Source: a virus. From it: a DNA stretch of 64,000 bases. Position numbers and translations under genes: made by a program. Below, one piece after another: positions 6,084-16,209 of this stretch; the stretch's first letter is position 1, and every line of letters starts with the position of its first letter. The stretch is from positions 1 to 64,000 of the IMG/VR virus record IMGVR_UViG_3300030117_007745. The stretch is one strand, 5' to 3'. The notes beneath the pieces were generated by a model that did no database searches, had not been told where the DNA came from, and worked only from the letters and a program-made list of their open reading frames with translations.

Positions 6084-6956
6084 TTATACACCTAATTTAT
6101 CTAATTTTTCAATCAAAAGATCAAGTTTCTTTTCTAAATTATTTATTTTGTTGTCTTGAGCTTTTACACCCTCAACCAAGAAAGAGATAATGCGGATGTA
6201 ATCCATACTATTTGCATACTCTCTGTCTTGAGTAAACTCAACAATGTCTGGCAAAACTTTGCCTACCTCTTCTGCAATAAATCCGTAGTCTTTTTTACCT
6301 GTATCTTTCCACACATAAGATACGCCATCAAGTCTGTTTAGTGTGCCTAGGGGGTCCTCTAGTGGGGCCACATCTTTTTTGTAGCGAATAGAGGAATAAG
6401 TGAGGTAAGCATTTGCTTTTATTTGCCCTGTTGTATCGCTGCTATCTGGCAAAGTTATAGCATGTGTAATACCTGCTCCACTAACGCCCACACCGATGCT
6501 GCCAGAAACTGCAAGATCTGATCCTAGAAATGCATTCCCCACTGCTTGCAAGGTAGAGGAGCCAGAGATATTACCGGCAACTTGCAGGCTAGTCCCATCA
6601 AATGTAAAGTTGGCAGATGCCCCAAAGGCTCCATTGTCATTAAATTGGATTTGAGTATTTGAACCAGCAGGCTCGTCATTTGATGCTGTTAGTTGATGAA
6701 CATAAACCTTCTTTACATTATTGCTATCATCTGCATCAGCCAACAACACAAAATCTGTGTCTGATACTGTTATCTCTGTTCCGTCAGTGGCTCCGTTGAT
6801 ATCAATAGCAAGTGTGACATCTCCGCTGGTGCCTCCACCAGATAGACCATTTGCAGCAGTTACGGCAGTAATGTCGCCTTCAGCAGAAATTGCCGATTTT
6901 GCTTGTTGCTTAATTAAAGATAATAGTTTTGCATGACTATAATTACCTATCGCCAT
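6084..6956 (-). CDS. Short fibre/spike protein with C-terminal intramolecular chaperone (peptidase S74) domain
   Basis: C-terminal YSSIRYKKDV...YVWKD...GFIAEEVGKVLPDIV...MDY...coiled coil; N-terminal GDITAVTA-GLSGG and GSNTQIQFNDNGAFG fibre motifs; start placed at ATG 6956. Confidence 0.85.
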   Translation of the reverse strand: MAIGNYSHAKLLSLIKQQAKSAISAEGDITAVTAANGLSGGGTSGDVTLAIDINGATDGTEITVSDTDFVLLADADDSNNVKKVYVHQLTASNDEPAGSNTQIQFNDNGAFGASANFTFDGTSLQVAGNISGSSTLQAVGNAFLGSDLAVSGSIGVGVSGAGITHAITLPDSSDTTGQIKANAYLTYSSIRYKKDVAPLEDPLGTLNRLDGVSYVWKDTGKKDYGFIAEEVGKVLPDIVEFTQDREYANSMDYIRIISFLVEGVKAQDNKINNLEKKLDLLIEKLDKLGV

Positions 6957-7392
6957 TTGATTTGATCTCCACAGCGACAGCAAAGACTGCTATGGAAAGA
7001 ACTATACCACCAAGCACACCACCGGCAAGCCACCAATGGCTGTTATCGTTTGGTCTTTCTAATGCTAGCTCTTGTAGTCGCTTGTTCTCCTCGTCTTTTA
7101 TATTGAGAAGATTTGTGTATTTATCGGTTGCCGAGTTTAGCTTGATCTCGCTGATCTTTAGATCTAGTTCTAGCTTGGCCTTTAATATTTCTATCTCTCT
7201 ATCCATTTCAAGCGCACACTCTTCTGCGGTGTATTTCTGCTCTGTTAGAACTTTGGCTGCTGCTTTGGCATCCATTAGGACACCAGTAAAGGGTGCTCGC
7301 TTGCCTTTCTGTATTTCAGTTATAACTCCCTCTTGCGCCCAAGCAGGGAAAGCAAAGAGTATAACTAAAAATATGGATAGTAGTTGTTTCAT
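6943..7392 (-). CDS. Secreted coiled-coil protein with C-terminal TM helix (possible spanin component)
   Basis: Type I signal peptide (AWA|QE), coiled coil, C-terminal hydrophobic helix; spanin role is inference. Confidence 0.6.
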   Translation of the reverse strand: MKQLLSIFLVILFAFPAWAQEGVITEIQKGKRAPFTGVLMDAKAAAKVLTEQKYTAEECALEMDREIEILKAKLELDLKISEIKLNSATDKYTNLLNIKDEENKRLQELALERPNDNSHWWLAGGVLGGIVLSIAVFAVAVEIKSNGDR

Positions 7393-7784
7393 ATGATTGA
7401 GTGCGCCTCTTCTTCAGCATATTCGTATTCTTCATCACTATATGTGCCAAATGTATCCTCAATTTCTTGTTGTGTTATTTCTCGGTAAGTTAAGCCGTCT
7501 CCACTAATGTTTTGGGTTATATCTCTAACTGGCATTCTTCCACGACAATCTATAGCTTCATCTGTATCAGGATCATAGACAAAAACATGCTGTATGTCGC
7601 CTGATTTATCAAAAATGCCGTAAGTCGGCAGTTCTAACATATCTGCCACTACATTAGCCAAGAGAGAGCAGTCACCTCTTTTAAAATCAATATACTCGGA
7701 GGGCTGTGTTTCTTCTTCCCCACCCAACTCAATATCTATACCTTCATTTAAATACTGTCGCCAGTTTTCAAGTAGTTGTTTCAT
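7389..7784 (-). CDS. Leader-bearing (MKQLLENWRQYLNE) acidic protein with putative Cys-His-Asp catalytic triad
   Basis: GDC...QHVFV...IDCRG pattern; GAGG SD. Confidence 0.65.
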   Translation of the reverse strand: MKQLLENWRQYLNEGIDIELGGEEETQPSEYIDFKRGDCSLLANVVADMLELPTYGIFDKSGDIQHVFVYDPDTDEAIDCRGRMPVRDITQNISGDGLTYREITQQEIEDTFGTYSDEEYEYAEEEAHSII

Positions 7785-7796
7785 TTTAGCCTCTTA

Positions 7797-7892
7797 CTAG
7801 CAGCAAGCACATGCCTCGCAGGTACAACATCCACAACAGCAGCAGCAGTGATCTTTAAATAGGTTTATTAATCTGTGTAATATCTTTTTCAT
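7797..7892 (-). CDS. 31-aa cysteine-rich peptide MKKILHRLINLFKDHCCCCCGCCTCEACACC (metallothionein-like or RiPP-precursor-like)
   Basis: Below the ORF-track cutoff; manual translation; GGAGG SD 8 nt before the ATG, TAG-TAA double stop, fills the gap between two genes. Confidence 0.75.
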   Translation of the reverse strand: MKKILHRLINLFKDHCCCCCGCCTCEACACC

Positions 7893-7895
7893 TTT

Positions 7896-8279
7896 TTATT
7901 CCTCCGCTTTTACGCAGTTTCTGTATGTCTTACCATACATCTTTTTTGTTTTTCTTTTTGGATGAGTCTTGTAACCTTTTTGGCAGCGTTCATCCAAGTC
8001 GTCTTCTGGCTCTTCGCTGGGAAGTCTTTCTTGGTCGTATGGAGCATCTTGCTGTATATACCGAAGGGCTACGGCTGCAAGATCTTCTCCCGCATCGTGT
8101 TGCATATAGACCATTACTTCTTCGCTTGATGGATCATACTCGACAATATACGAATCGTCGTTGTCCATTATCATTTCAAAGTATTCTAAATCGCCAGCAG
8201 GAGTCATCTTTCTTACACGATTATCCTCGCCTTCATTTTCGTTCAAATACTCTTTCCACTCATTCAAAATCTTTTTCAT
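7896..8279 (-). CDS. Leader-bearing (MKKILNEWKEYLNE) protein with C-terminal basic CxKGY...GK...NCVK module
   Basis: Acidic body plus basic two-Cys mini-domain of a type seen in T4-like phage small proteins. Confidence 0.65.
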   Translation of the reverse strand: MKKILNEWKEYLNENEGEDNRVRKMTPAGDLEYFEMIMDNDDSYIVEYDPSSEEVMVYMQHDAGEDLAAVALRYIQQDAPYDQERLPSEEPEDDLDERCQKGYKTHPKRKTKKMYGKTYRNCVKAEE

Positions 8280-8890
8280 TTCTTGACTAACTCCTTATTT
8301 ACAATATCATAACCTTCCACAACTCCTACCTTTTCGTAGTCAAAGCCGGGGAGTAGGGCGATCTTCTGCTCTGGGAACTTGCCATTCACAATGAACGAGC
8401 AAGCCTGCCCTACTACCTCTGTGAAGAGGGCTGGATGAGATGCTGGTGGCATTGTCTGTATGTGTGCGTTATAGGAGGCAATCTCGCCTTTAGCATCAAA
8501 CTGTGTGCCTCGCTGGATGTGAGACATAAAGTCGTGGACTGCCCTAAACTTTGCGTTTGTTTGTGGGTCAAAGATGTCGTGCTCTGCATCAAGGGTAGAA
8601 ATCCTTAACACGCCATTTTGCTTAACATCTTGCTTTAGCTCCTCTGCGTCGGCATAGGGATGCTCTTCGACAAACTGAACATCAACAACACCTTCAATCC
8701 TTTTGAACATCTTGTCAACAAAGGGCTTCATGGCCTCAAAAGATGACACAGCACCTTGATCAAACTTGGGTGCTCTTGCGTATGCTGCTGCAACCAACTC
8801 ACAATACTTATCCCAGCCGTTTGGGCCGGGCTTCAGCATTAGCTTCTCGCTCATCAAGAACTTTCGCCAGTTTTCAAGTATGAGTTTCAT
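8276..8890 (-). CDS. Leader-bearing (MKLILENWRKFL) protein with FRAVHDxxxH...GE...TE putative metal-binding/zincin-like domain
   Basis: NAKFRAVHDFMSH...FDAKGE...YNAH...LFTEVVGQ motif set. Confidence 0.65.
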   Translation of the reverse strand: MKLILENWRKFLMSEKLMLKPGPNGWDKYCELVAAAYARAPKFDQGAVSSFEAMKPFVDKMFKRIEGVVDVQFVEEHPYADAEELKQDVKQNGVLRISTLDAEHDIFDPQTNAKFRAVHDFMSHIQRGTQFDAKGEIASYNAHIQTMPPASHPALFTEVVGQACSFIVNGKFPEQKIALLPGFDYEKVGVVEGYDIVNKELVKK

Positions 8891-8902
8891 TCGTATGCCC
8901 CG

Positions 8903-9271
8903 TTAAAGATTGACGACGAAAGAGTAATTGGCCAAGGCCGGATGCTTAATCGCAACTGGCTGATCAAATAAGTCCTTTGGCACAAATACCTTATCACTAA
9001 AGCGAAGCATTTTCACCGGAGACTCTTCGGTCAAAGTCAAAGTAAGTGTTATGGGGACTGGGACTCCTGAAGACTTATCCACTCCAGATATCGTAGCTGG
9101 TTTTTTCTCTTCGTACCCGGATATCTTGAGTTCCGGTGGGTCTTGTATCAGATTAGCAAATTCATACAAATCTACAATCACCCCTTCTTCACCCTTTTTT
9201 TGAAAGCCCTCATATACTTTTTTGATCTCTTCTTTGATGATTTGTTTTAGTTTTGTTTTTGCAATTTTCAT
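8903..9271 (-). CDS. Leader-bearing (MKIAKTKLKQIIKEE) hypothetical protein
   Basis: 122-aa ORF, AAGGAG SD; LKQIIKEE leader. Confidence 0.7.
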   Translation of the reverse strand: MKIAKTKLKQIIKEEIKKVYEGFQKKGEEGVIVDLYEFANLIQDPPELKISGYEEKKPATISGVDKSSGVPVPITLTLTLTEESPVKMLRFSDKVFVPKDLFDQPVAIKHPALANYSFVVNL

Positions 9272-9345
9272 TTCTTTCTCCTTATTTTTTCCTTATCGCC
9301 CAAACAAGCTGCTATAGCCATTTGTTGTTTTTTGTTACGCCACAA
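9268..9345 (-). CDS. Possible 25-aa mini-ORF (M)WRNKKQQMAIAACLGDKEKIRRKK
   Basis: TTG 7 nt downstream of ACTATTTAT motif (internal ATG at 9321); stop overlaps the next start as ATGA. Confidence 0.3.
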   Translation of the reverse strand: MWRNKKQQMAIAACLGDKEKIRRKK

Positions 9346-9373
9346 TTATAATATAAATAGTTTTCAAAGTCAA
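9345..9373 (-). promoter_or_regulatory. Sigma70-type promoter TTGACT-17-TATAAT with nested ACTATTTAT putative late promoter (9353-9361)
   Basis: Minus strand reads TTGACT TTGAAAACTATTTATAT TATAAT; intergenic. Confidence 0.75.
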
Positions 9374-9395: not shown

Positions 9396-9818
9396 TCATC
9401 CTTGTCCACTCTCAAAGTATGTAATGCCAAATCTCTCCGAGAGTAGTTTGGACAAGTTGCTTGGATCTTCGCTGTTTTCTGCTACAAGTTTTCTAACCTC
9501 TGTTCGCTTTTTGTCCGAGAGTTCTTCTTTTTTACTCTCGTATTCTTTTTCTATTTTAGCAATGATCTCGTGGTACTTAGCTAAAGCACCATCGCGCAAA
9601 GCAATCTCCTCTGCGTGACTACTATTCAAAGTATCTAGTTCTTTCTGGTGGGTTTCTTTCTCTACTTCTAAAACTTCTTTAATTTTATCTGCTTGGCCCT
9701 TAAAATATAGCCATACAGCTAAGGCATAAATTGCACCAGCAAATACTTGCCAATACTTCTTTATAAAGATCCAAAACTTTGCAAACCAAACTTTAGCAAC
9801 TAGCCAAAACTCCATCAT
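9396..9818 (-). CDS. N-terminally membrane-anchored coiled-coil protein (i-spanin-like topology)
   Basis: N-terminal aromatic/hydrophobic helix then long charged coiled coil; ATGA-coupled to the holin-like gene. Confidence 0.55.
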   Translation of the reverse strand: MMEFWLVAKVWFAKFWIFIKKYWQVFAGAIYALAVWLYFKGQADKIKEVLEVEKETHQKELDTLNSSHAEEIALRDGALAKYHEIIAKIEKEYESKKEELSDKKRTEVRKLVAENSEDPSNLSKLLSERFGITYFESGQG

Positions 9819-10021
9819 TTTCCATGCTTCCATTGTGCAGCGATATCAGCTAATCCCTGAATTCCTATATATGCCAAAGATATAGCGACCCAATCGCCTG
9901 ATTGCAAAGGTAATGCCTCAGTTAACATGAGCCCTGTAGCCGTTAGCCATACCATCAATTTTCTTGATACTAGCTTATTAAGTGTTTTATCTAGTGCATG
10001 TCTCAACATTTCATCCTCCAT
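9815..10021 (-). CDS. Holin-like small membrane protein
   Basis: 68 aa, SRKL followed by two hydrophobic segments. Confidence 0.55.
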   Translation of the reverse strand: MEDEMLRHALDKTLNKLVSRKLMVWLTATGLMLTEALPLQSGDWVAISLAYIGIQGLADIAAQWKHGK

Positions 10022-10392: not shown

Positions 10393-13300
10393 CTATTGAT
10401 TTACACAAGCAAATCCATTTGCTTTGTCAATCTCAATTGTCATATCAGCGATATCCTTCAAGTGATCTACATGAGAAATCAATAATACAGTTTGATAATA
10501 GGACTTCACCATATCTAAAATACGTATGAATCCCTCCATATTTTCCGCGTCCAAAGCAGTTGCTGGCTCATCAAGAATAAATATAGACCCCTTTGGAAGA
10601 GAAGAGACTGAAAGGAGTGATAACCTTATGGCCATGGCCGCAATCGTTTTTTCTGCGCCGGAGCCCATCTCAATTGGTCTAGCTTCATATTTCGGATGTT
10701 TAATAAAAATATCTAATTTATTTCCTTCCGATTCAAAAAAGACCTCAAAGTCTACAACATTCGCCAAAACTTTACTTATTTCATCATTGATCACTGGTAG
10801 TTTCTTCTTGATGACATCCAGAGATATGCCATTGGTGTGCATGCAACGCATAAAAAGATCGTATGCTGCAAAGCTGTCGCGGAGGTTTTCCATCTCTTCT
10901 TTTTGATTCTTTAGATTTTCTAATCTCTGCTCAAGAGAGCCTCGCTCCTTGATGAGAGAAACTATTTCTTCATTACAATCACTAAGAACGCTTTTTTGGC
11001 CTCCTAGTATATTTTGCTGTTTTACTTTCTCTCCGATAAGTTGCTCTAAATTTTCAATAGCTTCACGATTTTCTTCGTATTCATCTATTTTTCTATCTAA
11101 ATTTTCTATTTCAAGATTTAAAGTCTTTATTTTGCTCTTGTTCTTGTCTATCACTAATTCATTCTGATTGATGGAATTGTAAATATCATCCCTCATTTCC
11201 AATACTTCTTCGTATTTTTCTATCTTTCTCTCTAATGATTTAGGATCTAAAGTCTGAATATCCTCGAATAGGCCCTCGGTCTCCTCCCTAAGCTCTTGAA
11301 GGTTTTTCTCAATAACAGTTATATTTCCTTGAGCACTGTAGGCATCTCTAATGAATTTACAGGAAGAATATTCGTTTCCACAGGGCACCTCTAGTAATAG
11401 CTTGACCTTGTTTTTGTTTTGATGCAAACGGTATTCCTGTTGTTCTATTGTTTGATTAGTCCCTTCAAGCAATACTCTTTTGCGATTGATTTCCTCTTGG
11501 TGTGTCTTGAGGGCCTCAATATCAAAGTTACTTAATACTTCACTAATCCTCTGATGGTCGATTCTTTTTGTTTTGCATTCTTGTGTGAGAGTTTCTATTT
11601 GGCCTTGTAAGACATCCATCTCTTTTTGTTTAGAGATTTGTTCTTCTTTAACCTCTACAATATTAATTATGTCTGCTGGTATTGAATCAATTTTTCGTTC
11701 AATCTCTTTGATAGAGTCTTCAGTGTTCTCAATTGATTTTGAGTATTTACGACATTTTCGTTGTTGTTTCTTTTCTGCGGCAAAGTTTTGTTCAAGTTCT
11801 GCTGTTGTTGCTGAAATGTCAGCGTCATATTCTTTTCCCTCCAATAGTTTCAAAGCACCCTTCATGTCAGATGCATCTTCTTTAGCCTTTTTAAATTTTT
11901 TGTCAAAAATTTCTAGATCAAGGAATTTTCCTAAAATTTCTTTTCTTTTTGTAGACCCTTCATTAATAAATGATAGGCTATCGACCTGTGAGGCCATAGA
12001 GGTAAGTAGAAAGTCATCAACAGTTCCGAACAATTTTCTTATGTTTTTATCTGTCCCATTGCGACTATCGCCATTTAGCTCGTTTTCTTCTTGCATTACT
12101 TTATCATAATAGGAGAATTCAATATCAGTTTTAGCCTCCATAGTCTCATTGCCCTTAAGCTTTTTTAAATACTTGACTGAACTTCTTTCAATAAGATAGT
12201 CTCTTTCGCCTATTGATATCTCAAGCCTCCCTCGACCTTCATCCTTGTTTTGGTTGATGACATTTAAATTTTTTCTCTCATTTTTACTAGTAGAATTAAA
12301 AAGAGTGTATAAAAAAGCATCAATAATAGATGATTTTCCTGAGTAGTTTTTTCCAAAGATTCCCACAATTCCATGAAGCTTTTCAAAATCAACCCTATTT
12401 CCTTCCCCATAATTAAAAAGATTGTCCCACTCAAATGATTTCAGAGACCAGTTAATGTTTCTTGAAACCTCCTCTTCCTCTTCGGCCATGGTATTGTATT
12501 TTCTATTGAGCGCAAAAACTTTTTCTAACGTCTCTGATTTTGCCTCATAATCTTTAAGGTATTCATCTATTAGTTCCTCTTGAACCATTGGATCTCTAAG
12601 ATCCTCTATGTTAATGCCGTCAGTTATATCCTGAACAGATCCCCTTTCTCCGCTCGAACGATTGAGAAAAGTAACACTTTCTGGACTAAATCTACCCTTT
12701 GCAATGTCTAGTGCCCGTCGCATAACATCTAGAGGTAAATTATTCTGAGATACCAAGCGAAGACGTGCGCCTTTGGGTACATCCATGTTCTTCGGCATCT
12801 TTCCCTTCGGAGTAAGCTCAATTGTTATAAACGGCTTTGGATTTGTAAGAGGAAAGTGTTCGCAAGTAAAACTTTCTTTGTCTTCAATGTCCCAAAGCAA
12901 AAATCCCTTGTCTTGGCTCTCACCAAAGTTCTGCTGAACTAGGGATCCGGGGTAGGCCACTTTCCCCATATCGTCAAGTTTCTGATATGTCTTGTGAATG
13001 TCACCGAGTAATACATAATCAAAAGGCTCAAATGATTTGATATCAACATCGCCATGATCCATGACCCAGCCAGTATCCGTAGTCACTCCAGCAACAGAGC
13101 CGTGAAAAAGTGCGATATTAATCTTACTCTTATCAGTTGGATCAATCCACTGATCTTCATCAACAATCGACAGAACATTAAGAACAAACCCATTTCCAAG
13201 ATCAACTTCTTGAGAAAACTTGTGAAAATGAATATCCTTGTGGTCTAGAGCCTCAACAATTGGAGTTACGGCATCAATTTTGCCCGGGTTGCGAAGATTG

Positions 13301-13545
13301 AGGTCATGGTTCCCAAGTATAACATGGAGGGGCGCTATGTCTGCTAAGTTCTCAAAAAGCTTGGCAGTCATATGAAAATAAGCAGGGCTTAATTGCAATT
13401 TGGTGTGTGCAGTATCACCAGTATTGACGATGATGTCTGGTTTTAATTCTCTCAGTTTTGCATAGAGTTCTTCAAACACAGCACTATATTCTTCATGATA
13501 CCTATGATTCCGGATGTGGATGTCTGATATATGAGCGATTTTCAT
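10393..13545 (-). CDS. Fused Mre11/SbcD nuclease + Rad50/SbcC ATPase (T4 gp47-gp46-like)
   Basis: N-terminal phosphoesterase motifs SDIH, TGD, GNHD, FHG, GDIH, YPGS; Walker A GKNYSGKSS; coiled coil with CxxxxxxC hook (PCGNEYSSC); signature GSGAE; Walker B ILDEP; H-loop ISH; start placed at ATG 13545. Confidence 0.92.
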   Translation of the reverse strand: MKIAHISDIHIRNHRYHEEYSAVFEELYAKLRELKPDIIVNTGDTAHTKLQLSPAYFHMTAKLFENLADIAPLHVILGNHDLNLRNPGKIDAVTPIVEALDHKDIHFHKFSQEVDLGNGFVLNVLSIVDEDQWIDPTDKSKINIALFHGSVAGVTTDTGWVMDHGDVDIKSFEPFDYVLLGDIHKTYQKLDDMGKVAYPGSLVQQNFGESQDKGFLLWDIEDKESFTCEHFPLTNPKPFITIELTPKGKMPKNMDVPKGARLRLVSQNNLPLDVMRRALDIAKGRFSPESVTFLNRSSGERGSVQDITDGINIEDLRDPMVQEELIDEYLKDYEAKSETLEKVFALNRKYNTMAEEEEEVSRNINWSLKSFEWDNLFNYGEGNRVDFEKLHGIVGIFGKNYSGKSSIIDAFLYTLFNSTSKNERKNLNVINQNKDEGRGRLEISIGERDYLIERSSVKYLKKLKGNETMEAKTDIEFSYYDKVMQEENELNGDSRNGTDKNIRKLFGTVDDFLLTSMASQVDSLSFINEGSTKRKEILGKFLDLEIFDKKFKKAKEDASDMKGALKLLEGKEYDADISATTAELEQNFAAEKKQQRKCRKYSKSIENTEDSIKEIERKIDSIPADIINIVEVKEEQISKQKEMDVLQGQIETLTQECKTKRIDHQRISEVLSNFDIEALKTHQEEINRKRVLLEGTNQTIEQQEYRLHQNKNKVKLLLEVPCGNEYSSCKFIRDAYSAQGNITVIEKNLQELREETEGLFEDIQTLDPKSLERKIEKYEEVLEMRDDIYNSINQNELVIDKNKSKIKTLNLEIENLDRKIDEYEENREAIENLEQLIGEKVKQQNILGGQKSVLSDCNEEIVSLIKERGSLEQRLENLKNQKEEMENLRDSFAAYDLFMRCMHTNGISLDVIKKKLPVINDEISKVLANVVDFEVFFESEGNKLDIFIKHPKYEARPIEMGSGAEKTIAAMAIRLSLLSVSSLPKGSIFILDEPATALDAENMEGFIRILDMVKSYYQTVLLISHVDHLKDIADMTIEIDKANGFACVNQ

Positions 13546-13793
13546 TTTGCCTTCCTTACTAATTCTAATTCTTTGTTCCAAACTGGAATTGGGTATTTTG
13601 ATCCCATGGGCACAATCATGTAATAATACTTATTCCAATCATGATTTGCACCTTTCATTTTTCCCTTCACTTCCGAGATTATTCCTAGAGTATTAAGACT
13701 GTCTTTTATCAATACTAGGTCTCCGACCTCAAAGTTTGGATGACTCCCAAGAACTTTGTGGGCATCGGATCTATTTGATTGTTTTTTACCCAT
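13542..13793 (-). CDS. Small SH3/KOW-like hypothetical protein
   Basis: FEVGDLV...GII...EL pattern; start uncertain (overlaps upstream ORF). Confidence 0.5.
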   Translation of the reverse strand: MGKKQSNRSDAHKVLGSHPNFEVGDLVLIKDSLNTLGIISEVKGKMKGANHDWNKYYYMIVPMGSKYPIPVWNKELELVRKAK

Positions 13794-14409: not shown

Positions 14410-16209
14410 TTATTTTTGAAGCCTAGGATAGATGCCTGACCTTAAATCCACGTCTCCAAACAAAATAACTCGGTTGTCCCCAGTTGGAACTCTAACTGAG
14501 CTTTTTACTCGATTCCCGTTTACTCTGGTTGAAGTTTTTTGATATTGACTTGCGTCTAGAGGGATATGAGTAATTTTAGTTTCCACAAGCGGTACAACCT
14601 CCTCCGTTGTGCAAATGCCATCATAATTTGTGTCTGCCCAAACATACAGTTTCCCAAATTCCTTGTCTTTAACGCTAACAGTTCCATCTTGGTTGGAGTC
14701 CATAGAGGCTAGGTGAGTAAACCCGCCTGAGTAGTTTGGCGATGTTCCGAAAAACTCTGTCCCATTGTCTGCAATTCCATTAGAGTTTTTGTCAACGAAA
14801 AGAAAACCATCACCACTAAGCCAGCTAACTGCTGTTTTTCTTTTGCCAAACATTGAAAAATTAACTCCATTTTCAACTGATGTGACATCAAAGCGGCCGT
14901 TATTATTCAAATCAATAACAATAGGGTCTGAAACATTGCATGGCACGACTTTAAAAATCTTTACAGCCGCCAAAGCAAACTCATCTTGTATACCCTCTTG
15001 TAAGGCGTTACTATAGTCCGTTTGAGCTTGAGCATACATAATTTCATCATCACTATTGACTGGCACGTAATCATCACACAGGGGGTTTTGCTCCATAGCC
15101 TGACTAATAGTATTCATGGAGTCGTTAAATACTGGATCTAAGATTGACTGGTCTGCTTGACAGACTTCAATTGGGTCTGACATTAGGGGGTAATCTCCTG
15201 TATATCCGTTAGTTGTCAGCCAATTATTCATACTATTAATAAAATGTTGCCTGCCGACAATAAGGCCTTTTTCTGCCGAGCTTTTTACAGGCGATGGATT
15301 GTTGTTGCATAGCTGCTTTGACTTAAGATCAACCCTAACCATCACGCGAGCTTGCTCTAAGCCACTAACCGCGCCCTGCTCAAACCAAAAATCTTGCTCA
15401 CTAAGGTCGGGGTTGTAGCTATCCCTACTAGCACTCAAGGTACTGTAAAGTTTAGAATAAGACTCTGATCGCGCTTGATCTACCAAATACTCACATGCAT
15501 AACCATTCATAACCCCTTGGTTGTTATAAAATTCAACATAAGGGCACGGAGAGGTTTCCGGAAGGGTCTCATCCTCATTTGTAATTTCGTAATTAGGATC
15601 AAGCCCCAAGTCTTCTAATGCCAAAGAGACTTGAGATAAATAAAGATCTTTTCCTATACCTAGGCCTCCAAAGATATTGTCTCTCAAAATTTCAATATCT
15701 GCGAACTCGTCCACTGTGAGATCTTCTAAGGTCACTTCGTCGTCAGTAGTTTCAACCTCAACTTGCTCCTGCTCATCGGTGGAATCGACCTCTGTTTCAG
15801 GGGTTGTTTCCTCTGTTTCAGAGGTTGTTTCCTCTGTTTCAGGGGTTGTTTCCTCTGTTTCGGGGGTTGTTTCCTCTGTTTCAGGGGTTGTTTCCTCTGT
15901 TTCAGGGGTTGTTTCCTCTGTTTCAGGGGTTGTTTCCTCTGTTTCAGACGGAACTGTGTTAGTTTCATTGTTTTCGCTATTGTTTTCCACTTCAGAGGCT
16001 TGGTCTGTCTCGGTACCGGCTTCTTGCGGAGTTAAGGTAGTTTCTCCTACCTCATTAGTTGTAGTTGTAGTTGTGGTTGTTGCGGTGTTATCTGTTGCTC
16101 CCGTGAATTGGATTGTTTTTTGCTCTCCAGTTTCTCCAGTTGTTGTTTCCGTATCCTCACAAGCAACCATGCAAAATACAGCCATAGCTGCGACAATATA
16201 GTTTCTCAT
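14410..16209 (-). CDS. Lipoprotein with Thr/Glu-rich stalk and C-terminal FrpC-like self-processing module (Asp428-Pro429)
   Basis: Lipobox MVA|C17; ETEETTP repeats; C-terminal SDPIVIDLNNNG...DGFLFVDKNSNGIADNGTEFFG...GFTHLASMDSNQDG...LYVWADTNYDGI matches the motif order of the FrpC SPM as recalled. Confidence 0.8.
   Translation of the reverse strand: MRNYIVAAMAVFCMVACEDTETTTGETGEQKTIQFTGATDNTATTTTTTTTNEVGETTLTPQEAGTETDQASEVENNSENNETNTVPSETEETTPETEETTPETEETTPETEETTPETEETTPETEETTSETEETTPETEVDSTDEQEQVEVETTDDEVTLEDLTVDEFADIEILRDNIFGGLGIGKDLYLSQVSLALEDLGLDPNYEITNEDETLPETSPCPYVEFYNNQGVMNGYACEYLVDQARSESYSKLYSTLSASRDSYNPDLSEQDFWFEQGAVSGLEQARVMVRVDLKSKQLCNNNPSPVKSSAEKGLIVGRQHFINSMNNWLTTNGYTGDYPLMSDPIEVCQADQSILDPVFNDSMNTISQAMEQNPLCDDYVPVNSDDEIMYAQAQTDYSNALQEGIQDEFALAAVKIFKVVPCNVSDPIVIDLNNNGRFDVTSVENGVNFSMFGKRKTAVSWLSGDGFLFVDKNSNGIADNGTEFFGTSPNYSGGFTHLASMDSNQDGTVSVKDKEFGKLYVWADTNYDGICTTEEVVPLVETKITHIPLDASQYQKTSTRVNGNRVKSSVRVPTGDNRVILFGDVDLRSGIYPRLQK
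15789..15946. repeat. 21-bp tandem repeat x~7.5 encoding ETEETTP
   Basis: Unit cctctgtttcaggggttgttt, near-perfect (two single-base variants). Confidence 0.95.

Follow-up and report, generated by a model that had tools for sequence, protein, structure and literature searches.

Among the closest described counterparts of the peptide reported here are the metallothioneins, for example the 11-cysteine alpha-domain of vertebrate metallothionein and the bacterial SmtA and MymT. Like these, the peptide is very small and about 30-35% cysteine, has CC, CxC and CxxC spacings and no fold predicted without metal, and its number of cysteines would suit a thiolate cluster of three to four metal ions, as in metallothioneins. 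Unlike them, it showed no relationship in sequence to metallothionein families in searches of Pfam and the PDB, carries a conserved amphipathic helix and five consecutive cysteines, and occurs only on phage contigs. The classical definition of a metallothionein calls for few or no aromatic residues or histidines, whereas Phe12 and His6 are near-invariant in this peptide family and a further histidine precedes the cysteine run.

Other described systems resemble the peptide in part. SCIFF peptides, ranthipeptides and their kin, which are substrates of radical SAM enzymes, share with it a short leader and a cysteine-rich C-terminal part, but the cysteines of our peptide are consecutive rather than spaced and no maturase is co-located. 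The internal proteins of phage T4 that carry capsid-targeting sequences have a short amphipathic N-terminal leader, as the peptide does, but the peptide lacks the protease-site motif. Cysteine-string protein (DNAJC5) and the palmitoylated tails of some viral proteins have at least 10 cysteines within about 20 residues, which are S-palmitoylated by eukaryotic DHHC enzymes; to our knowledge such enzymes are absent from bacteria. The cysteine run of DNAJC5 is visually similar to that of the peptide, which is without a J-domain or membrane context. Mycobacterial polycysteine short ORFs act as leaderless, cysteine-responsive attenuators (bioRxiv 10.1101/834739). Like the peptide gene they are unannotated and short, with consecutive cysteine codons just upstream of a gene; unlike them, the peptide locus lacks an RNA duplex sequestering the ribosome binding site, and the sequence of the peptide itself is conserved.

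Reading frame and expression signals

The stretch of DNA that we analyzed (the window) comprises the first 64 kb of a 112.6-kb IMG/VR viral record with a CheckV completeness of 44%. The micro-protein gene lies on its minus strand at 7797..7892 and consists of 31 codons followed by a TAG stop (ATG 7892..7890; TAG 7799..7797). An initial annotation, made from the sequence alone, had pointed to a 31-amino-acid peptide with 11 cysteines in its last 16 residues, without giving the strand. We found exactly this arrangement, which makes the peptide 35% cysteine, and the signals named in that annotation are also in place. A Shine-Dalgarno sequence, GGAGG (7905..7901), is located 8 nt 5' of the ATG, within the 3' end of the upstream gene. 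A second in-frame stop, TAA (7796..7794), comes directly after the TAG and is followed in turn by the GAGG of the next gene. The cysteine codons are a mixture of 6 TGC and 5 TGT and are broken up by five other codons (GGA, ACC, GAG, GCA and GCT), so that the gene is not a pure trinucleotide repeat, as the annotation had stated.

The gene is tightly packed between two minus-strand neighbors of unknown function. The upstream gene (127 aa, 7896..8279) ends in a stop codon at 7898..7896, 3 nt before the ATG of the peptide, and the downstream gene (131 aa, 7389..7784) starts 12 nt past the stop of the peptide, with its own GAGG 6 nt before the ATG at 7784. No functional annotation was obtained for the flanking window genes in our searches. 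Apart from those overlapped by a longer minus-strand ORF, all window genes of at least 90 aa are on the minus strand, and the plus strand has a single ORF across the peptide site, which reads the bases of the gene in antisense over 28 aa.

The peptide gene belongs to a gene block running from 9271 to 7389. The only sizeable gap upstream of this block, 124 nt long, contains the best sigma-70-like promoter match of the region, TTGACT-17-TATAAT on the minus strand (9373..9345; 11 of 12 consensus positions). This site is a consensus match only, and promoter-like sites in the region as a whole were not above the number expected from shuffled sequence. Its position would fit transcription of the block by host polymerase, that is, early in infection.

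A conserved family of ten-cysteine peptides

We searched a collection of viral contigs with a degenerate DNA pattern for the core His-Cys5-Gly-Cys2. There were 87 matching stretches, and rather than showing frameshifts or stops, 85 of them were intact ORFs of 30-49 aa with one design. Because this search itself fixes the histidine and cysteines of the core, we also performed the reverse search, keyed on the leader alone. It returned 42 stretches, every one of which continues into a cysteine-rich core. Six of these were new; in them the glycine is replaced by K, Y, D or E, or one cysteine by Ser or Thr, and the histidine preceding the cysteine run was kept in all six. Indeed, this histidine stands directly ahead of the run in every member retrieved. 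Relatives of a neighboring 204-aa gene led to three related contigs in which the peptide is intact and has amino-acid changes, and the closest relative contig has another variant of the peptide 6 kb off the position in the window.

Among 77 distinct DNA versions, the cysteine positions use TGC and TGT in proportions of roughly 50:50 to 75:25, histidine is encoded by both CAT and CAC, and the leucine positions are encoded by 11-13 codons. In the leader, which lay outside the selection made by the core search, pN was 0.27 and pS, which is saturated, was 0.81, giving a pN/pS of 0.33. A Shine-Dalgarno-like 4-mer is present upstream of 75 of 83 family ORFs, and the median gap to flanking same-strand genes is 15 nt upstream and 12 nt downstream. 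The proposal of a real, unannotated and apparently translated small gene is borne out by the intact homologues and by the constraint on the leader. We regard it as near certain that the 31-codon ORF is a real gene under purifying selection on its amino acids, and judged by these comparisons it is neither a microsatellite nor a chance ORF. The family is also a case of conserved coding capacity that is missed below about 40 codons.

The peptide has two parts. Residues 1-14 (7851..7892, minus strand) are predicted from the alignment, AlphaFold2 and the hydrophobic moment to form a cationic, amphipathic N-terminal helix. Residues 15-31 (7800..7850, minus strand) hold the 11 cysteines, in a His-Cys5-Gly-Cys2-x-Cys core and a tail with further cysteines. 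The consensus of the family leader is M-K-x-x-L-H-[KR]-L-x-N-L-F-N-x-x. His6, Leu8 and Phe12 are near-invariant, and Asn10 and Asn13 are present in about 80% of members (among the distinct DNA versions, His6 in 74/77 and each asparagine in 62/77). His6, Asn10 and Asn13 make up a polar stripe, and positions 4, 5, 8, 11 and 12 are hydrophobic; the leader of the window peptide has a hydrophobic moment of 0.73. In the AlphaFold2 monomer, residues 2-12 were modeled as a helix with low confidence (pLDDT 65) and the cysteine segment was unstructured. A prediction for an oligomer of four copies with four Zn scored 0.02, a value that speaks neither for nor against self-association.

The number of cysteines is almost constant. 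Exactly 10 are present in 64 of 69 distinct family peptides (the window peptide has 11), and the median cysteine content of the family is 30%. Past His-Cys5-Gly-Cys2 there are three more cysteines in the family and four in the window peptide, one of them in x-C and the other two or three in the tail, and the tail occurs in two layouts, x-C-x-x-G-C-C and x-C-x-x-C-x-G-x-C. A few members, not including the window peptide, have a basic C-terminal tail with an R-G-R-P core, in some cases as a long extension.

Searches for named relatives returned none. The window peptide had no match in Pfam at E ≤ 0.1, and eight relatives had none at E ≤ 10 except for a sub-threshold AT-hook. Four members were compared with NCBIfam, including the models for SCIFF and other cysteine-rich peptides and RiPP precursors, with no match at E ≤ 10. 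Neither PHROGs nor a profile search of the PDB gave a relative of the peptide, and the ESM Atlas gave no usable match. In protein databases with 1.84 billion representatives there were only 8-9 relatives, all unnamed; this near-absence is explained by gene callers that skip ORFs so short. A literature search turned up no relevant description of the motif or of phage metallothioneins. A small, cysteine-rich, probably metal-binding peptide is a known kind of molecule, and the family itself is, by these searches, without a detectable relative. As retrieved here, it unites a conserved helix with a run of five cysteines and is confined to phage contigs.

One locus (L043, 612-805, minus strand) has tandem peptide genes. 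One is intact (33 aa); in the other the leader is shortened and the cysteine core runs into an unrelated tail, and it looks like a decaying duplicate. This second member of the pair was the only decayed copy of the family that we saw.

Occurrence in large uncultured marine phages

We found the family on about ninety uncultured marine phage contigs. The large terminase encoded by the 112.6-kb record shares 46% identity with its counterpart in Flavobacterium phage vB_FspM_immuto, 42% with that in Microcystis phage Mel-JY01 and about 34% with those in T4-like cyanophages. The primase of another peptide-bearing contig leads to the same distant relatives. A related terminase was found on more than 600 viral contigs, and the terminases adjoining the peptide gene are 60-94% identical among themselves. 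From these related terminases we infer that the carriers of the peptide belong to a single clade of large myophages, abundant and uncultured. Near-complete genomes that bear the peptide are 175-290 kb in length. Few sequences in this clade are as sharply conserved as the peptide.

Within the clade, the motif was absent from 12 fragments with related terminases (30-82 kb), which are no more than 16-45% complete. In cultured phages we found no true copy. Searches of 50,697 GenBank phage records with the peptide by tblastn and blastn gave no real match, with a sensitivity limited by the short query and the low-complexity filter. Pattern scans of immuto and Mel-JY01, the nearest cultured phages, and of LR756508, phage C48C1 and Pelagibacter phage HTVC008M revealed no copy; the single pattern match in immuto is antisense and lies inside a tail-spike gene.

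We also scanned prokaryotic genomes for the core pattern, using one genome per species (185,579 species, 596 Gb). There were 20 matching places, and two were true members of the family. The other 18 are chance matches: none has the leader, and 16 are in DNA of 55-71% G+C. One of the true members is on a 116-kb contig (L114, NHHP01000006.1) binned as Candidatus Pelagibacter sp. TMED166, on which the neighboring genes match those of the viral loci at 43-90% identity. The other is on a contig of 101,404 bp (L110, PBIO01000025.1) binned as Halobacteriovorax sp., with four weaker neighbor matches to the viral loci; an IMG/VR viral record that is also 101,404 bp long has a truncated match to the leader pattern. 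Both look like phage contigs of the same clade, and judging from the neighboring genes at least one of these prokaryote-binned copies sits on a mis-binned phage contig. In the sequences that we surveyed, only large marine myophages of one uncultured, T4-like clade carry the peptide family.

Gene neighborhoods

The peptide gene is co-directional with its neighbors at every locus, and the neighborhood varies by sub-clade. In a comparison of 87 loci, no neighbor was conserved throughout and no enzyme was consistently adjacent. At 18 loci the gene comes after that for a DnaG-like primase and near a fused SbcD-SbcC nuclease. At 6 loci it directly follows an M50 site-2-type peptidase, which is nearby at 8. 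In two loci (L047 and L098) it lies between prohead-protease-like and scaffold-like genes, both assigned from sequence motifs with no family search. At several loci it is found between small membrane proteins, and in the window and elsewhere it is found among small genes of unknown function with leaders ending in [L/I]-x-E.

In the window, the SbcD-SbcC fusion is encoded at 10393-13581 (minus strand) as a single protein of 1062 aa in which an SbcD/Mre11-type phosphoesterase is joined to an SbcC/Rad50-type ATPase; it is kept in 22 related loci at 43-100% identity, and its domains were assigned on the homologue from L026. Dozens of unrelated small genes, in the window (7389-9271) and in numerous related loci, among them L025, L028, L031, L062, L020 and L055, share two types of N-terminal leader, M-K-x-L-L-E-N-W-R-x-[YF]-L and M-K-I-T-K-x-Q-L-x-Q-I-I-K-E-E. 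Both types are widespread across the phage clade, and most of these leaders end in [L/I]-x-E, the type of site recognized by the T4 prohead protease (gp21).

Three small membrane or secreted proteins are encoded in the window on the minus strand at 9396-10021 and 6943-7392: one of 68 aa with one transmembrane segment, one of 145 aa with an N-terminal transmembrane segment and a coiled coil, and one of 149 aa with a signal peptide and a C-terminal transmembrane segment. They recur beside the peptide gene in several relatives (order F13-PEP-F11-F7). No family match was found for the trio, which is possibly a lysis-type cassette. The Peptidase_M50 protein (about 270 aa, site-2-protease type) is encoded directly upstream of the peptide gene in L020, L030, L049, L084 and L085 and one gene further upstream in L056; in these phages its gene is preceded by that for a small membrane protein. 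The full 112.6-kb record encodes no M50 protein.

In one sub-clade, the peptide gene is near genes of iron-sulfur cluster assembly. IscU is encoded in 8 of 44 peptide-bearing records and lies 0.1-2.2 kb from the peptide in 6 of the 8, in several gene orders; the peptide on the mis-binned "Pelagibacter" contig is also near IscU, which brings the total within 2.2 kb to 7 of 9. IscA and a CysK-like PLP enzyme are near the peptide in some loci. The loci of this sub-clade are L024, L042, L045, L063, L029, L070 and L114, which carry IscU (NifU_N); IscA (Fe-S_biosyn) is present in at least L045, L063 and L114, and the CysK-like enzyme in L063. These Fe-S and cysteine auxiliary genes are usually no more than about 2 kb from that of the peptide. 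IscU is absent from the other 36 of the 44 records, and its region also gathers unrelated accessory genes (M50 peptidase, cupin, phosphomannomutase, fatty-acid hydroxylase, sugar enzymes and primase). Given these unrelated genes, and because the IscU-bearing phages are related and the cases not independent, we treat the association as a hint and not as a demonstration. It is possible that the peptide is tied to Fe-S cluster assembly in the IscU/IscA sub-clade.

Possible functions of the peptide

By established metallothionein chemistry, an assembly of 10-11 thiolates and histidine with no predicted fold of its own would bind Zn, Cu(I) or Fe. Our leading and still tentative reading is that the peptide is a putative helix-tagged metal-thiolate micro-protein (Zn/Cu or Fe-S), an assignment that we consider to have slightly less than an even chance of being correct. 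In this scheme, the 10-11 thiolates, with one or two histidines, would fold round metal ions in the reducing cytoplasm to give a compact metal-thiolate cluster, either of the Zn/Cu type or Fe-S. Through the conserved helix the peptide would self-associate or attach to a conserved partner from the phage or the host, and during infection it would serve as a small metal-cluster adaptor, buffer or donor. The near-fixed number of cysteines, maintained despite two layouts of the tail, speaks more for a defined cluster than for an unspecific sponge. The conservation of the helix points to a specific surface for docking, be it to another copy of the peptide or to a conserved partner, and a modeled helix joined to an unstructured cysteine segment is what would be expected of a metal-dependent fold. 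The basic R-G-R-P tails of some members would fit a peptide that functions in free form. Against a cluster, five adjacent cysteines are sterically awkward as ligands of a single one. The initial annotation had suggested a minimal metallothionein, a redox buffer or a RiPP precursor; a metal-binding peptide appears the most plausible of these in our analysis, although the family shows no similarity in sequence to the metallothioneins as such or to other metal-binding families.

A more far-reaching version of the metal-thiolate reading, which we consider doubtful, is that the family represents a new class of viral auxiliary micro-gene, in which a helix-tagged deca-cysteine peptide would build up a defined metal or Fe-S cluster and so take part in the metal or Fe-S economy of the infected cell. 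If so, it would work alongside the phage-encoded IscU and IscA in the sub-clade that carries them, and no earlier case would be known of a phage encoding a metallothionein-like or Fe-S carrier micro-protein. With its fixed ten cysteines, the peptide could be a compact and easily synthesized probe of the effects of phages on metal, Fe-S and thiol homeostasis in the host.

A serious alternative, even if we think it unlikely, is that the peptide is a small regulator or inhibitor. The helix would bind a host or phage macromolecule, the cysteines would form a structural zinc knuckle or a redox switch, the variants with R-G-R-P tails would bind DNA, and metal storage or delivery would not be the function. 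The strong conservation of the helix and its polar stripe, and the AT-hook-like tails of several members, would be expected of such a molecule, and accessory gene arrays behind the sigma-70-like match would fit early expression. There is also precedent, since many characterized phage micro-proteins bind host proteins, according to a review (PMC11323111). However, ten cysteines are far more than the four needed for a structural knuckle, and the AT-hook-like tails score below the Pfam cut-off (PF02178 against three extended members, 11-12 bits, E = 0.18-0.47, cut-off 17.4).

The suggestion of a RiPP precursor fared less well, and we consider it improbable. In this reading, maturation of the leader helix and cysteine-rich core would fall to an enzyme of the host or to an unlinked one of the phage, such as a thioether-forming radical SAM protein. 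A short conserved leader followed by a cysteine-rich C-terminus has the general form of such precursors, and radical SAM proteins are encoded in a few peptide-bearing records. These are only 5 of 44 long records, however, and 2 of 10 near-complete ones. The initial annotation had noted that no maturase is visible in the window, and this extends to the whole 112.6-kb record, in which we found neither a radical SAM nor a YcaO protein. Any maturase would be unlinked, conserved neighbors are lacking across the 87 loci, and the NCBIfam precursor models were unmatched. The core is the most conserved part of the peptide and not a variable one, and no leader cleavage motif of the Gly-Gly type or any other was seen.

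We give similarly little credence to a virion or assembly peptide that would enter the prohead or be borne on the particle, and whose cysteines would be cross-linked by disulfides or metal once outside the cell. Consistent with it are the two loci with the gene between prohead-protease-like and scaffold-like genes, and its frequent location among genes with leaders ending in [L/I]-x-E. The initial annotation had likewise supposed that the peptide was possibly packaged and that its MKKIL start was like that of the neighboring leader. The resemblance holds for the first five residues (about 11-12 nt) and stops there. Residues 1-15 of the peptide contain no Glu and do not end in [L/I]-x-E, the family consensus ending instead in L-F-N-x-x-H, so that neither packaging nor a shared leader is upheld. 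Furthermore, the position of the gene varies widely, with many copies in replication or accessory modules, and the identities of the protease and scaffold rest on motifs.

Least probable of all is that the ORF is a cis-acting sensor, in which ribosomes pausing on cysteine codons when Cys-tRNA is scarce would tune the next gene and the peptide would be irrelevant: the five consecutive cysteine codons with a gene 12 nt downstream, the mycobacterial precedent (bioRxiv 10.1101/834739), a CysK-like gene directly downstream in L078 and the proximity of IscU/IscA in one sub-clade would agree with this. Against it, amino-acid conservation is seen in the non-cysteine leader and in the tail, long basic extensions follow the C-terminal part of some members, different loci have unrelated genes downstream, the ORF is mid-operon with its own Shine-Dalgarno sequence rather than first in a leaderless transcript, and the RNA of the ORF together with the 45 nt that follow it has less structure than shuffled controls (window z = +1.57; median z = +0.76 over 75 family loci, with only 2 under -2).

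Other cysteine-rich reading frames

There was no second copy of the peptide in the record; a weak DNA match at 109 kb is merely the leader of another gene. A 90-aa ORF on the plus strand of the window (15763-16035) has a repeated C-F-R-G-C-F-L unit. This ORF is antisense to, and mirrors a tandem repeat in, a 599-aa minus-strand gene (14410..16209), and it is not an independent cysteine-rich gene. Three long matches that had the appearance of fused forms of the peptide are over-extended or chimeric gene calls. On L044 (IMGVR_UViG_3300045996_003088) there is a cysteine-rich ORF of 148 aa with several His-Cys4-7 runs and without the family leader, which could be a separate poly-cysteine protein or an artefact.
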